61,647 nucleotides of DNA from Conexivisphaerales archaeon (lineage in GTDB: Archaea > Thermoproteota > Nitrososphaeria > Conexivisphaerales > DTJL01), in NCBI GenBank assembly GCA_049509455.1, contig JBEKZX010000004.1, forward strand, positions 1 to 61,647, given 5' to 3'. Every line of letters starts with the position of its first letter. Positions within the stretch are counted from its first letter, which is position 1. The notes under the pieces are model-generated. The model was given only the letters and a program-made list of their open reading frames with translations, was not told the DNA's origin and did no database searches. Of the stretch, positions 27,955 through 34,544 are shown in pieces. A program made the position numbers and the translations under genes.

Positions 27955-28497
27955 ATGTCTTCTGACAACGTAAGGGTCAGGGTCAAGGTTGGTGCAAACG
28001 AAGTTGAAATCGAGGGTCCGAAGGACTCCCTGAAGGACCTCATCGAGCTGGTCCCTGCCATTGTCGAAGGGATGGCGTCTGAGAAACCATTGTCGATCCC
28101 TCCTCCCGTCGCTCTGGCTCAACCTCCGGCTACCGTGCAGGCCCAGCAGGCGACCCTTCAGGACCTCCCCGAGCTCAGGGTGGAGAAGGGCGAATCGCTC
28201 CCCAGCATCATGACGAAGCTCTTCGGCTCCTCGTGGGGGAGGACCCCTAGGCGCCTCCTCGAGGTAAAGGGAGCCCTCGAGTCCTTCGGCCTCGTGTATC
28301 CAAGGCAGTCCGTGGCCGTGGCGCTGCTCCGGCTGGCACAGGAGGGGAAGCTCAGGAGGTTCAAGGGCCCCGATGGCGACTTCCTGTACACCTCCTCCAC
28401 GAGCCTCTTGCAGTCAGGCGCCGAGTACCAACAGGCCGCCCAGCAGGAGCCCGCTTCGACTCCACCCGTCTCTGACACCTCGGTCGCCGGCCCGTGA
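27955..28497 (+). CDS. Small protein with beta-beta-alpha N-domain, P/Q linker and C-terminal winged helix (paralog A)
   Basis: VRVRVKVGANEVEIEGP; C-domain aligns by eye with 29115-29513. Confidence 0.8.
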   Translation: MSSDNVRVRVKVGANEVEIEGPKDSLKDLIELVPAIVEGMASEKPLSIPPPVALAQPPATVQAQQATLQDLPELRVEKGESLPSIMTKLFGSSWGRTPRRLLEVKGALESFGLVYPRQSVAVALLRLAQEGKLRRFKGPDGDFLYTSSTSLLQSGAEYQQAAQQEPASTPPVSDTSVAGP

Positions 28498-28625
28498 CGC
28501 AGAAAAGGGAGTCCGCCGTCATCCAGGCGGGCAACCTCCTCCCGCTGTTGCGCAAGTCTTTTAACAGCGAGCGAGGGCACTACATCGCAAGACGTCGCGA
28601 TCTAGAAACAATGAGGTTTTGAGAT

Positions 28626-29123
28626 TTGTCTGAGAAAAGGGAAGTCCGCGTTCACATCAACTTCGATGGCTTCGAGGCCGACCTGATCGGCACGCCGCAG
28701 GAGGTCGCCGTCAGCTTCAACAATCTGATGACAAAGCAGATACCCGCACTCGAGCTGGCGCAGACCCTCATGCTGAACTACTCCCTCTCTGAACTCACGA
28801 ACATCTTCCAGGACTATGTGCGCATGACGCCTGAAGGCCCCCGCGTTATCACCGACGCCAAGCTCAGCGACAAGATGCTGCTTGCCCTCCAGCTGGTGTC
28901 GCTGAAGATAGGCTTGGAGGCGGCCAAACTCAGTTCGGACAAGGCCACCCTTCAGGACCTTGAGCGCCTTACGGGGCTCAACCCGAAGAGTATAAGCTCT
29001 AGGTTGAGCGAGATGACGAAGGCCGGCCACGCCGACCGGCTTGCCTCCGACAACGGCGTCTTCTACTATATCACGACGACCGGCGTCAACTGGCTGGCCA
29101 AGTCCCTCGGGAAGCTAGGCTAG
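28626..29123 (+). CDS. Small winged-helix protein with a similar N-domain (paralog B)
   Basis: VRVHINFDGFEADLIG; TLQDLERLTGLNPKSISSRLSEMTKAG...YYITTTG. Confidence 0.8.
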   Translation: MSEKREVRVHINFDGFEADLIGTPQEVAVSFNNLMTKQIPALELAQTLMLNYSLSELTNIFQDYVRMTPEGPRVITDAKLSDKMLLALQLVSLKIGLEAAKLSSDKATLQDLERLTGLNPKSISSRLSEMTKAGHADRLASDNGVFYYITTTGVNWLAKSLGKLG

Positions 29124-29513
29124 GGAGTTCTCCGGAGGCTTCTTCTGCACGTAGCGGTAACTACGAGGAGTCCCGTCCCTGCTCAAGGTGCCTTCCCTGA
29201 CGAGATCGGTCAGGCTGTGAGAGATGGCCGTCTTGTCGTAGTGGTACCCCATCCTTGCCAGCTCCTCGTCCACCTCCGATAGGCTCCGCAGCGTCGCGAA
29301 CCACGATTCGCCCCAGAGCTTCTCCAGGAGCGTCTTGCACGTCACTCCCCGATCGGTCTTCTCTCGCGCGAAGAGGCCGCCTTCGCCGGGGCCTGTGGCG
29401 TTCAGCCCGGCTAGTACCTTCGCTATGACCTCCGACACGCGGTCTTCGGGGGCGTCCACTTCGACCTCCCATCCGCCACGCTTAAGCTTGATGTGTATGA
29501 CGGTGGAGCTCAA
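29115..29513 (-). CDS. Small winged-helix protein (paralog C)
   Basis: IHIKLKRGGWEVEVDAP; RSLSEVDEELARMGYHY...LTDLVREGTLSR. Confidence 0.8.
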   Translation of the reverse strand: MSSTVIHIKLKRGGWEVEVDAPEDRVSEVIAKVLAGLNATGPGEGGLFAREKTDRGVTCKTLLEKLWGESWFATLRSLSEVDEELARMGYHYDKTAISHSLTDLVREGTLSRDGTPRSYRYVQKKPPENSLA

Positions 29514-29594
29514 CGCCGAGTCCCCTTATTGTTGAACACAATCAAGTTGCGCAACATTTATTTAGCCTACCAGCCTGTACTGTTGTTGGTCAAG

Positions 29595-30617
29595 TTGAAC
29601 AAGCAATTAAATGTTATCCTCTCTTCGCCCGCCGTCAACAGGTTCGGAGAGCTCTCGGCCAACAGCTTCTCCGAGCTGGATGGCAAGAAGCTTGTTCTGG
29701 TCAGGAGCGGCGAAGATTTGGAGCCCATCAAGGGCTGGAGGAGCGCTGGGGACGCAGTCGAGATTCACCCCATCCAGCCGAAGGGCAGAAGAAGAGATGT
29801 CGCCGCGCTGGACTCGAGCGTCATCCAGATCGCGGAGACGGAGGACGGCGCGGTGTACGCTGCCAAGGCCTCTCTGGCCTTCAACATAGGTGGCGCGAAG
29901 AACTCCGTTGTGGTCGGCCCCAGTGTAATCTACGTGGGCGACGACAGTGTCCAAACCCTGCTCGGGCTGCTGGAGAAGCCTGTGCCCAGGCGACTCATCC
30001 TTTCGGACGCCGGGATGGCCATGAGGCTAATCCGGGTCCTGATGGAGAGAGTGCTTGCGCATGAAGTCTCCACCAGCCTCGAGCAAGGGTTATTGCTTCT
30101 TGACGGCTCCCTGAAACCCTCGGTGTTCGAGCCCAGGGGGAGCACCCTGAAGTCCCTCGTCGATGTGTGCGACGGCGAGCTCATCCTCCTCGCGGGCATT
30201 GCCAAGAGCACGAAGCTAAAGGTGCTGCAGGGGATAGAGAGCCAGCTGTTCGAGGACGGGGTCCCTCCCTCCTATGTTGACATCACGCAGCACGTCAGGC
30301 TCTTCGTGGCCGACCTACTCGGGAAGTCTTACCTTACAAAGCTGACGTCCGATGGCCTGCCCTTCCGCGTGGACCTGACGAGGTCGGAGGACCCCGACGA
30401 GGTCCTCTCCACCATCAGCGAAAGCGACCTGCTCGTGAGAGGGTATCCGGAGACGTTGAGGGCTGCACACTTCCTTTCGATATTCTCCGAGGCCGAGGAG
30501 GCGGTGGTCAAGAGCCAGCTCACGAGGAAGGCCAAGGTCACGGTCCTCCCCTCTGACAGCCTGCGGAAGACCGTCCTCGGTCCACTGACCATGTCCAAGA
30601 GGCGAGGGGCGAGCTGA
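29595..30617 (+). CDS. nurA: NurA-family nuclease (start uncertain)
   Basis: VAALDSS, LLLDGSL, GIAKST, GYPETLRAAH; coupled to a HerA-type ATPase gene. Confidence 0.8.
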   Translation: MNKQLNVILSSPAVNRFGELSANSFSELDGKKLVLVRSGEDLEPIKGWRSAGDAVEIHPIQPKGRRRDVAALDSSVIQIAETEDGAVYAAKASLAFNIGGAKNSVVVGPSVIYVGDDSVQTLLGLLEKPVPRRLILSDAGMAMRLIRVLMERVLAHEVSTSLEQGLLLLDGSLKPSVFEPRGSTLKSLVDVCDGELILLAGIAKSTKLKVLQGIESQLFEDGVPPSYVDITQHVRLFVADLLGKSYLTKLTSDGLPFRVDLTRSEDPDEVLSTISESDLLVRGYPETLRAAHFLSIFSEAEEAVVKSQLTRKAKVTVLPSDSLRKTVLGPLTMSKRRGAS

Positions 30618-32131
30618 AGATACTCGAAAAGCAGGGGGACGAGATTCGCATCCTCACCATGCCTGAGGAGGACTTCAAGAAGGGTGACTACGTCAAGATC
30701 TCGGACGAAAAGGAGGGGCGCTCTTTAATCGTCCAAGTCTACGATGATGCCTACCTAGACTCCATGGGGATCCAAGAGGAGATGCTCAGGGACGAGCTCT
30801 TCGCCAACACCGAGCTGGTCCACAGCGACCCCCTCCAGCTGAACAGCATCTCCTACATGATCAAGGACGCGAAGGTCCTAAGATGCAAGATCAGGTGCGC
30901 GGTGGAACGGGGCATCGCGCTCCCCGACATGGGCTGGCTTCCCAGCAGAAGTAACAGCCGAATTGCCAGGCTACCCCTTCCGGAGCTCTACTCCCTCATG
31001 GGGCGCCGGGGCGGGAGACCGATACGGCTGGGCAGCACCCTTTCAGGTGAGGAGTTCCACATCAACGCGGAGGACCTCGACGGCCGGCTCACCATCATTA
31101 CGGGAAGGAAAGAGGCGGGAAAGTCGCATATCGCCAAGCTACTCGCCACGGGGCTCCTGGACTACGGCGCCTACCTCTTGATCTTCGACCTAAACAACGA
31201 GTACGGGGGGCTTTCCTTCTCCCGGGACGGCACCGCCAGCCCGTACGCCGACAAGGTGAAGGTGCTCCAGCCCGGGCACAACCTCAAGTTCACCATCAGG
31301 TACCTCGGCAGGCGCATAATGCTGGACATCTTCCAGAACGTGCTTGAGGTGCCGGGCGCCACCCTCAGAGAGTTCCTGCGGATCTGGGACTATCTGGAGA
31401 GCTCTGGGAAGATCACCCTCAAGGACATGGAGGAGGTCATCCAGCACTGGCACTGCAACGAGCTGGTCAGGGACGCCCTCCTCTCAAGATACTACAGCCT
31501 CCTTTCATCCGGCATCTTCACAGACTCGGACAGGTATGAGGTGCGGCTAGAGGACCTCTACTCCGCCAGGCCAGAGGGCGGAGCCGTCATCATCTCCATG
31601 GCCGGCGTCAATCCGTTGGCTAGACGCATGATCGTCGAGGCCCTGCTGGCGAAGGTCGTGGAGACGCTGGAACAGAGGATCCTCCCTCCCATCTTCCTTA
31701 TCGCCGAGGAGGCGCACCTGTACCTTCGGCAGACCTACTGGGAGGACCTCATCACGAGGATGCGCCACTATGGGGTCTTCACGGTGTTCGTCACCAACCA
31801 GCCTGATGCGCTAGGCATCGGCGTGTACAGGCAGGCCGACAACGTCTTCCTCTACAACTTCACCAACGACCGCGACCTTGAAACGGTATCTCAGGCCTCT
31901 ATGACCGACGCCCAGACGGTCAAGAGCATCGTAAGGTCTCTCCCTCCACGTCAATGCCTGATGCTGGGCAAGGCCGTCGGCGACTTGCCGGTGGTACTTC
32001 AGGTGAGGGACGCAGCTTTCCAGGTGCTGGGCTTCACTCGCCTCTTCTTCCCGATCCAGCAGGCCATCGAGAAGAAAGCCATCAGGCAGGAGGACTGGGG
32101 TTTGGGGGAACCGCACAAGCATCTTGAATGA
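30614..32131 (+). CDS. herA: HerA/FtsK-family ATPase (DUF87); possible CTG start overlapping the nurA stop, first ATG at 30659
   Basis: GRKEAGKS, IFDLNNEY, IAEEAH, RMRHYG, VTNQP. Confidence 0.85.
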   Translation: MKILEKQGDEIRILTMPEEDFKKGDYVKISDEKEGRSLIVQVYDDAYLDSMGIQEEMLRDELFANTELVHSDPLQLNSISYMIKDAKVLRCKIRCAVERGIALPDMGWLPSRSNSRIARLPLPELYSLMGRRGGRPIRLGSTLSGEEFHINAEDLDGRLTIITGRKEAGKSHIAKLLATGLLDYGAYLLIFDLNNEYGGLSFSRDGTASPYADKVKVLQPGHNLKFTIRYLGRRIMLDIFQNVLEVPGATLREFLRIWDYLESSGKITLKDMEEVIQHWHCNELVRDALLSRYYSLLSSGIFTDSDRYEVRLEDLYSARPEGGAVIISMAGVNPLARRMIVEALLAKVVETLEQRILPPIFLIAEEAHLYLRQTYWEDLITRMRHYGVFTVFVTNQPDALGIGVYRQADNVFLYNFTNDRDLETVSQASMTDAQTVKSIVRSLPPRQCLMLGKAVGDLPVVLQVRDAAFQVLGFTRLFFPIQQAIEKKAIRQEDWGLGEPHKHLE

Positions 32132-32192: not shown

Positions 32193-32897
32193 ATGGCAGA
32201 ATCGACCGACGAACTCGCCATAAACATCGCCGGCGAGCTAACGGTCAGCGCCAGCCCAGGGAGGTCAATGAAGCTATGGCGAGAGAAGGGTCGAATCAGC
32301 CAGGCCCAGTTGGCGCGGGCAATGGGCGTCTCCCCTTCGGTCCTCAGTGACTACGAGAACGGGCGCAGGCATTCCCCCGGTGCAATGTTTCTCAAGAGGT
32401 TCGTCGACTCCCTCATCTCCCTCGACAAGCAGGGAAACCGCCTCCTCACCAGCAAGCCCGCCCAGATGGACTCCGGCGCCATCCTCGGCATCGGCGAATA
32501 CGCCATGCCCGTCACCACGAGCAAGATCATCGAGGAGCTGGGAGCCAAGGTTCTCACCGGGGAGGAGCAGCTGGACAGGCTCGTCTTCGGCTATACGGTC
32601 CTCGACAGCATAAGGACTATATCCTCCTTGTCAGGCGTCGAGTTCTACAAGATCTATGGCAAGAGCACGGAAAGGGTCGTGGTGTTCACCCAGGTGGGCC
32701 TGGGCCGGAGCCCCATGGTCGCCATTCGCGTGTCGCAGCTCAAGCCCAGAGTAGTCATCATCCATGGCCTGGAGCAGCTGGACCAGCTCGCCGTCCAACT
32801 GGCCGCCAAGGAGCGTATCGTCCTCGCGGTCTGCTCCAAGGGCACCGCAAGGCAGCTCGTGGAGAAGCTGGCCTCCTTCGGCGAGACAAAGGCTTAA
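32193..32897 (+). CDS. XRE-type HTH regulator, archaeal COG1709-like
   Basis: IAGEL..S..PG, SQAQLARAMGVSPSVLSDYENGRR, GRSPMVAIRV. Confidence 0.85.
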   Translation: MAESTDELAINIAGELTVSASPGRSMKLWREKGRISQAQLARAMGVSPSVLSDYENGRRHSPGAMFLKRFVDSLISLDKQGNRLLTSKPAQMDSGAILGIGEYAMPVTTSKIIEELGAKVLTGEEQLDRLVFGYTVLDSIRTISSLSGVEFYKIYGKSTERVVVFTQVGLGRSPMVAIRVSQLKPRVVIIHGLEQLDQLAVQLAAKERIVLAVCSKGTARQLVEKLASFGETKA

Positions 32898-33797: not shown

Positions 33798-34544
33798 CTA
33801 TTCCCACTGATGCCTCTCGGACGCCTTCAGCTTCATGAGCGCGATAAGGAGGCCACTGTGCTTTTCTTCATCGGCCTTCACCGATTCCAAGACCGTCTGC
33901 ACGAGATCGTCGTGCACGATCAGCTTGACTCCGTCCAGGCTGTGAACGTGCGCCACTTGCTCATACGACAGGAGCTTCTTCAGCGTCTCTTCTGGAGGGA
34001 GATCCATCTCCTCCCCCTTGCCGTTTTCCAGCCTGCTTATGACGGTCATCAGGATGTCCGCATGCCTTATGCTGTCGCTCGCTATCTGTCGGAAGACCAG
34101 TCTGACCAGGTTGTTCCTGATCTGGGTGGCGACGCTCATGAACAGCTCGGCCGCCTCCTGTTCCGCCTGCAGCCGCCTCCTCAAGGCTTCGAGGTTCAGC
34201 TCTCTTTCGTGGGAGGAGGCATCAGTCTCGTCGCTTCTGGTAAGGGGCTTCCGGTCGACGATGCTGGAGATCTGGTAGGCTAGCTCGAAGAACTCCGCCG
34301 GTATCGCCTTGGGGGTTCTGATGGCCACCTTTTCACAAAATGCATCGATGAGGAGGGTCACGTCGCTCCTGGATAGGACCTTTACGGGCCTCGACGCTCT
34401 GCCGCCCTTCAAGTACTGGGTGACCGCTGATGGGCTGATTCCAAGCGCCTTCGCGACGTCCTTCTGCTTGAGCCCGTGCCTCTCCACCAAGCGGTGGGCG
34501 AGGAGGGACCGGAGCCCTGGAATCAGCTCCTCTACGTTCATCAA
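33798..34544 (-). CDS. HTH regulator fused to a ferritin/rubrerythrin-like domain
   Basis: QKDVAKALGISPSAVTQYLKGGR; E..DSIRH..E..DEEKH pattern. Confidence 0.8.
   Translation of the reverse strand: MMNVEELIPGLRSLLAHRLVERHGLKQKDVAKALGISPSAVTQYLKGGRASRPVKVLSRSDVTLLIDAFCEKVAIRTPKAIPAEFFELAYQISSIVDRKPLTRSDETDASSHERELNLEALRRRLQAEQEAAELFMSVATQIRNNLVRLVFRQIASDSIRHADILMTVISRLENGKGEEMDLPPEETLKKLLSYEQVAHVHSLDGVKLIVHDDLVQTVLESVKADEEKHSGLLIALMKLKASERHQWE

Follow-up and report, generated by a model that had tools for sequence, protein, structure and literature searches.

Small hairpin-helix and winged-helix proteins linked to a second, divergent NurA-like/HerA-like pair in Conexivisphaerales and related archaea

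Architecture and homology of the A, B, and C proteins

The 61,647-nucleotide stretch analyzed here (positions 1 to 61,647 of contig JBEKZX010000004.1, assembly GCA_049509455.1, from a Conexivisphaerales archaeon; hereinafter the window) contains three adjacent genes for small proteins, termed A, B, and C, the last of which lies head-to-head with a gene pair coding for a NurA-like nuclease (NurL) and a HerA-like ATPase (HerL) (Table 1). A preliminary description, drawn from the letters of the DNA, had interpreted A, B, and C as anciently duplicated subunits that share an N-terminal module followed by a winged helix and co-assemble into a nucleoid or chromatin complex. The three open reading frames and the N-terminal strings quoted in it are present in the translations, and B and C share 9 bases at their 3' ends; the NurL-HerL neighborhood of C is absent from that description.

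The AlphaFold2 models of C and B (predicted local distance difference test scores of 74 and 82.7, respectively) are alike in comprising an N-terminal β-hairpin and helix, a low-confidence linker, and a winged helix-turn-helix domain, namely a three-helix bundle followed by a β-hairpin wing, which in C is formed by helices at residues 59–68, 78–87, and 94–106 and strands at 110–113 and 120–123. A is predicted to carry the same fold by virtue of its homology to C, and the invariant residues in an alignment of 29 A sequences cluster in positions 72–145. None of the three proteins reached a cut-off in the Pfam and NCBIfam scan, which also detected no extra domain, and the best sub-threshold matches are to the winged-helix families GntR, MarR_2, and RTP. 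Foldseek searches initiated with C recovered generic winged helices, including those of MecI/BlaI, Fur, and Hop2. Those with B recovered members of the MarR family (BpsR, AbsC, and MarR, E = 4e-4 to 1e-3), which together with the model bear out the winged helix previously noted in B, and the centromere-binding protein AspA of plasmid pNOB8 (PDB: 4rs8; target TM-score 0.78, root-mean-square deviation 1.9, 85 columns). Nearly all of the Foldseek matches are winged-helix regulators. Searching the Protein Data Bank by sequence, with profiles of A, B, and C as queries, yielded nothing below E = 0.009. B additionally displays a second predicted hairpin between its N-module and winged helix, in which T68, P69, E70, G71, P72, and R73 are invariant in 18 of 18 sequences and which may form a docking surface.

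A and C proved homologous along their entire length: BLASTP matched the two with E = 7e-13 (25% identity), and hhalign aligned them with a probability of 97.9% over 124 columns. This resemblance is beyond chance and indicates that A and C are paralogs derived through an ancient duplication; the residue pattern reported earlier for their C-terminal domains matches the BLASTP alignment. No BLASTP match linked B to A or to C, and profile comparisons of its N-terminus gave probabilities of 73% with A and 66.5% (39 columns) with C. When a profile of 79 B N-modules was run against 7053 six-frame open reading frames from related loci, 12 non-B matches were obtained at E≤0.1, all of which were N-termini of A (11) or C (1), with a best E of 0.0015. 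Homology of the B N-module to that of A and C is hence probable but weak. Thus, the common architecture proposed in the preliminary description holds clearly for A and C, and in terms of predicted structure for B and C, as does the ancient duplication for A and C, with B being tied to them only through the weak similarity of the N-modules. A complex prediction with A (residues 1–152), B, and C, with C as the partner, returned a score of 0.01 (mark 0.32), which weighs neither way.

The homologs of A, B, and C fall into 74, 32, and 96 clusters, respectively, almost all of which are named "hypothetical protein"; the sole other name among those listed is a single "DNA-binding MarR family transcriptional regulator". 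A merged A and C profile recovered 1623 representative clusters at a threshold of E≤0.001, of which 294 reach E≤1e-10. Members of this A/C superfamily are mostly 120–180 residues long and match over their full length; a scan of viral contigs with the merged profile recovered no relative.

The second NurA-like/HerA-like pair

NurL scores above the cut-off of the Pfam NurA family (PF09376; 29.5 bits, cut-off 21), and HerL above that of the DUF87/HerA family (PF01935; 47 bits, cut-off 23.2). D77, E155, D174, and H296 of NurL are invariant in 22 sequences and, judging from their positions, are likely to be its catalytic residues, while HerL shows invariant Walker A (G154, K155, S156) and Walker B (E350, E351) residues. 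The closest solved relative of HerL is the Sulfolobus HerA (PDB: 4d2i; E = 1.9e-14); a search of the Protein Data Bank with the NurL profile returned nothing at E≤1. A canonical operon encoding NurA (64.8 bits), HerA (132.9 bits), and an Mre11-type phosphoesterase is located elsewhere in the same genome (contig C106, L082:189-3602), and NurL-HerL are only 22–26% identical to this NurA-HerA pair. The presence of the canonical set implies that NurL-HerL is an extra, divergent copy. The gene order of the canonical operon agrees with that of Nitrososphaera relatives in the pertinent passages of a 2026 paper (PMC13707971).

The conserved N-terminus of HerL, which begins at 30614, overlaps the NurL stop codon (TGA, 30615–30617); the codon at that point is CTG, with an ATG 15 codons further on, and HerL may have either an unusual start or a shortened N-terminus.

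Conservation of the gene neighborhood

When one genome per prokaryotic species was scanned for matches to the C profile, 326 loci were confirmed, and the locus counts given here refer to the best 80 of these, the titles of which include Nitrososphaerota/Thaumarchaeota, Conexivisphaerales, Nitrososphaerales, Nitrosocaldus, Nitrosomirales, and Gagatemarchaeum. Profile matches above 100 bits were obtained for C in all 80 loci, for B in 63, and for A in 62. The head-to-head association of C is with NurL in 74 and HerL in 72 of the 80 loci. In each of the 59 loci with both A and B, A immediately precedes B on the same strand (gap of at most 150 bases in 56). Of the 63 loci with B and C, 58 show a convergent and 5 a co-directional arrangement of the two genes, and the stop codons are no more than 60 bases apart in 48. 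The genes are therefore linked in other genomes as well, as the preliminary description had supposed.

This linkage is of unequal strength across the three genes. In 13 loci C occurs without A or B within 6 kb; five genomes of this kind were tested, and in each of them A and B are found side by side at another position. As A and B stay adjacent when C lies apart, A-B constitutes the tightest unit and C a separable partner, and the linkage fits an A-B pair with a separate C better than an obligate trio. The surroundings are also syntenic in many loci, extending from GatD/GatE to a tRNA synthetase, with GatE found in 42, GatD in 36, an XRE-type helix-turn-helix gene in 39, and the tRNA synthetase in 27 of the 80 loci. 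In the window two genes of the XRE type lie downstream of HerL: the first is the one kept in 39 loci, and the second also has a rubrerythrin-like stretch. One C homolog was found on a 2253-base contig labelled as part of a bacterial (Rhabdochlamydiaceae) metagenome bin, a label that probably reflects a binning error rather than gene transfer.

In the deep lineages three further arrangements were observed. In the first, NurL-HerL is divergent from C, which is followed by one or two B-type genes. The second, represented by 8 loci, is a co-directional operon of one to three B-type genes followed by NurL-HerL, lacking C and including an A-type gene in some of the loci. The third, found in 4 loci, combines C with two or three B-type genes and has no NurL or HerL nearby. 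Four small genomes (0.8–1.0 Mb) present yet another configuration, with C, A, and B all in one direction.

A conserved palindrome in the C/NurL promoter

The spacer between C and NurL is highly conserved even at 63% protein identity. It contains a perfect palindrome, GTTGCGCAAC, with the core TTGCGCAA, which is conserved in an alignment with 4 relatives and abuts an AT-rich, TATA-like element, ATTTATTTA. The ATAAAT core of the latter is invariant in the 5-sequence alignment, and the element probably serves as a shared promoter core for both divergent genes. An exact copy of TTGCGCAA is present in 63 of 79 divergent C/NurL spacers and a copy within one mismatch in all 79 (one-mismatch copies occur at a background rate of about 0.3 per kb). 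Of the 96 exact copies counted across loci totaling 896,850 bases, 87 are located within C/NurL spacers, which together make up 14,899 bases.

The palindrome is associated with C. It was not found upstream of any of the 8 NurL-HerL operons lacking C, and it lies just upstream of C in 2 of the 4 loci that have C and B but no NurL or HerL; in the four small genomes no copy was found up to 160 bases away from C. The third helix is usually the DNA-reading helix of the winged-helix fold, and in the predicted third helix of C (residues 94–106) most positions are invariant or almost invariant, in keeping with recognition of a fixed target.

In the window's genome as a whole (2.05 Mb), TTGCGCAA is under-represented, with 10 copies where about 20 would be expected; two of the 10 belong to this cluster. 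The eight other copies form no obvious genome-wide regulon. Two lie 33 and 42 bases upstream of genes (contigs C90:1197 and C46:14779), namely those for a 241-residue protein with an N-terminus that resembles an ArsR-type helix-turn-helix by eye and for a 242-residue open reading frame, which could be further targets; others lie inside open reading frames. The second copy in the cluster, GTTGCGCAAG, is situated in the A-B spacer. No exact copy occurs at this position in other loci, and it may be lineage-specific. The inverted repeat that encloses it could be a hairpin ending A or a part of the B promoter.

Table 1. Coordinates of the genes and sequence elements of the A/B/C and NurL-HerL region in the window
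Feature	Position	Strand	Description
Gene A	27955-28497	+	180 residues; ATG start at 27955 (family alignment); β-hairpin and helix ~6-40, Pro/Gln-rich linker, winged helix ~78-150 (predicted), acidic/Pro tail
Inverted repeat CGCTGTT...AACAGCG	within 28540-28570		7-base arms; A-B spacer
Second palindrome copy, GTTGCGCAAG	28547-28556		A-B spacer, inside the 7-base inverted repeat
Gene B	28626-29123	+	165 residues; TTG start at 28626 (family alignment); hairpin 7-22, helix 24-38, short helices 41-60, second hairpin 65-74, MarR/ArsR-like winged helix 82-149, C-terminal helix 151-162 (AlphaFold2)
TPEGPR hairpin of B	28818-28847	+	codons for residues 65-74, between N-module and winged helix
Gene C	29115-29513	-	132 residues; TTG start at 29513 (family alignment); hairpin 5-22, helix 23-38, disordered 40-55, winged helix 59-123 (AlphaFold2)
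Candidate operator, GTTGCGCAAC	29546-29555		between C and NurL; perfect 10-base palindrome, core TTGCGCAA
TATA-like element, ATTTATTTA	29556-29564		AT-rich, abuts the palindrome
NurL, NurA-like nuclease	29583-30617	+	start uncertain: TTG codons at 29583, 29586, 29595
HerL, HerA-like ATPase	30614-32131	+	first ATG at 30659; stretch homologous to the N-termini of relatives from 30614
XRE-type helix-turn-helix gene	32193-32897	+	downstream of HerL
XRE-type helix-turn-helix gene	33798-34544	-	downstream of HerL; rubrerythrin-like stretch

Phyletic patterns

The distribution of the families was further examined in a wider sample of 200 other genomes from the phylum of the window's genome, which are kin rather than independent samples, with thresholds of E≤1e-10 for C and B, E≤1e-60 for HerL, and E≤1e-18 for the A type. 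C was detected in 59 genomes, B in 72, and HerL in 69, and the A type in only 12. C and B co-occur in 55 genomes, C and HerL in 41, B and HerL in 52, and all three in 38. The B profile, which derives from sequences of close relatives, may fail to detect divergent copies. In many lineages a second B type takes the place of the A type.

One family, comprising 26 of the sampled genomes, shows no C, B, or HerL at these thresholds, and in 4 of 5 of its genomes only relatives scoring 25–35 bits were found. Both tested members of this family carry the archaeal amoA.

Natural fusions

Two natural fusions were identified. The first is a 230-residue paralog encoded in the same genome as the window (contig C1, L099:1483-2175, minus strand), in which a B-like middle and winged helix (probability 97.5%) is joined to an A-like linker and winged helix (97.1%) without an N-module. 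This is as expected if the N-modules normally bring B and A together. The fusion was not found at full length in the 200 sampled genomes. The adjacent gene (L099:858-1520), coding for 220 residues, begins with a hairpin-helix by eye and proved unrelated to the A/C profile (probability 0.1%). The second fusion is a 499-residue protein combining a HerA/FtsK-like P-loop ATPase and a long coiled coil with a C-terminal, C-type winged helix that is 46% identical to C over 71 residues. Its ATPase part is weakly like HerL (hhalign probability 21%).

Relationship to known systems

The winged helix of the A/C superfamily is of the BlaI/MecI/CopY type: MecI/BlaI are among the best Foldseek matches of C, and the palindrome that accompanies C at its divergent promoter is a further feature in common with those repressors. 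At the level of sequence, A and C have no match to the corresponding Pfam family (Penicillinase_R, PF03965) at E≤1, although 8 of 35 distant members of the superfamily pass its cut-off (24.5–32.8 bits, cut-off 22.6) and 3 more fall below it. BlaI and MecI have an N-terminal winged helix and a C-terminal, helical dimerization domain; in A and C this order is reversed, with the 38-residue hairpin-helix module being N-terminal and the winged helix last. No BlaR1/MecR1-type sensor-protease domain was detected among the scanned neighboring open reading frames.

In the case of B, the likeness to the MarR and ArsR-SmtB families and to AspA is confined to the fold of its C-terminal half, and its score on MarR_2 (15.4 bits, cut-off 27) places it outside the MarR family (PF01047/PF12802). 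It differs from these proteins in its added N-terminal hairpin-helix module and its invariant TPEGPR hairpin, and neither a ligand pocket nor a partition ATPase is evident near B. NurL-HerL resembles the canonical HerA-NurA(-Mre11-Rad50) system in passing the Pfam cut-offs and in keeping the catalytic and Walker residues, and it differs in its ties to genes for small winged-helix proteins and to a palindrome in the promoter. Open-access main-text passages that discuss HerA/NurA in these archaea (PMC13707971, PMC5797428, PMC7554672) mention no winged-helix partners, second pair, or palindrome, and no published description of this module was found in the open-access literature.

Functional interpretation

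Building on the observed architecture, the homology of A and C, the gene linkage, and the conserved palindrome with its tie to C, the explanation that we favor, with a probability of about one half, is that A, B, and C constitute the recognition and control part of a second NurA-like/HerA-like module. The A/C type and the B type would represent two related, undescribed families of small DNA-binding proteins, with winged helices of the ArsR/MarR/BlaI kind. Their N-terminal hairpin-helix module of about 38 residues would be unable to fold by itself and hence most likely mediates pairing. Together, the three proteins would provide DNA recognition and control in an old module centered on NurL-HerL. 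C, probably as a dimer, would bind TTGCGCAA where it abuts the shared TATA-like element and thereby control both its own promoter and the NurL-HerL operon. A and B, presumably made from one transcript, would act as a pair, probably a heterodimer formed via the N-modules, that either acts at different DNA sites or cooperates directly with NurL-HerL, be it as co-regulators or as DNA-targeting partners.

Several observations weigh against this explanation. At the thresholds used, 18 of the 59 C-bearing genomes show no HerL and 14 of the 69 HerL-bearing genomes have neither B nor C, and the four small genomes with co-directional C, A, and B lack a true NurL (36–41 bits, versus 351 bits in a fifth genome that keeps it). 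The small proteins thus persist without the nuclease-motor pair, and regulating NurL-HerL cannot be their sole role; the coupling between the two is strong but not absolute. The breadth of the synteny means that close relatives may owe some of this linkage to inherited gene order instead of selection. In addition, 16 of the 79 C/NurL spacers lack the exact palindrome, both fusions are single cases, and the homology of the B N-module is weak. The protein that binds the palindrome, the oligomeric states, and the contact with the nuclease or the ATPase are all elements that we infer.

A different division of labor between the same components, unlikely in our estimation but the strongest of the alternatives, is that the small proteins are structural DNA-targeting subunits of the NurL-HerL machine rather than mainly its regulators. 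The winged-helix gamma domain of FtsK recognizes DNA and loads or orients the ring ATPase, and the A/C- and B-type proteins would play its role in trans, reading particular sequences or DNA ends. As detachable DNA-reading subunits of a sequence-guided DNA-processing machine, hairpin-helix pairs would load or orient the HerL ring and NurL at defined sites, with C serving in addition as a transcriptional switch. The tight co-directional operons that unite NurL-HerL with one to three B-type genes, and in some cases also with an A-type gene, in 8 of 8 deep-lineage loci examined speak for such a role, as do the presence of HerL in 52 of the 72 B-bearing genomes, the invariant, exposed TPEGPR hairpin of B, which has no obvious DNA role, and the natural fusion of an ATPase with a C-type winged helix at its C-terminus. 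The persistence of the small proteins where NurL and HerL were not found speaks against it, and the ATPase of that fusion is only weakly like HerL.

The proposal that A, B, and C are three independent homodimeric transcription factors, the proximity of which is inherited gene order without shared function, is quite improbable. It would accommodate the broad synteny with GatE, GatD, the XRE-type gene, and the tRNA synthetase, as well as the fact that the winged helices are of common repressor types. However, the placement of C or B beside NurL-HerL extends far beyond the range over which the other neighbors are kept, and is seen again in distant families, with HerL scores declining from 785 bits for the window's own protein to about 390 bits. 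Moreover, A and B are adjacent in all 59 loci that have both and remain so in 5 of 5 genomes after separation from C, and a natural fusion joins B-like and A-like parts.

Co-assembly of A, B, and C through the N-modules, giving a heteromeric complex that displays several winged helices and has a general nucleoid or chromatin role, as in the preliminary description, is very improbable: the N-module common to all three, the clustering of the genes, their retention in the small 0.8–1.0 Mb genomes, and the joint presence of C and B in 55 of 59 C-bearing genomes agree with it, but the palindrome tied to C, present in the C/NurL promoter and in only 10 copies in the 2.05-Mb genome, points to sequence-specific rather than general binding, the context is a specific one with C divergent from NurL and HerL in 74 and 72 of 80 loci, C lies apart in 13 loci while A and B stay together (5 of 5 tested), the replacement of the A type by a second B type shows that the trio is not a fixed set, and the failure to find the set in the 26 sampled genomes of the family whose two tested members carry amoA is hard to square with a core chromatin role.

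Implications

HerA-NurA is regarded as the archaeal DNA-end resection motor. The observations presented here indicate that a second and divergent copy of this pair is present in many Nitrososphaerota and in archaea related to them. Across long evolutionary distances, this copy remains tied to a dedicated set of small winged-helix proteins and to a palindrome conserved in the promoter. They also define a large superfamily in which a new small module, probably mediating pairing, is placed ahead of a winged helix. The system offers a concrete experimental handle, in the form of a single predicted operator, a single predicted regulator, and a single predicted protein pair, on what appears to be a widespread and unstudied DNA-processing module.

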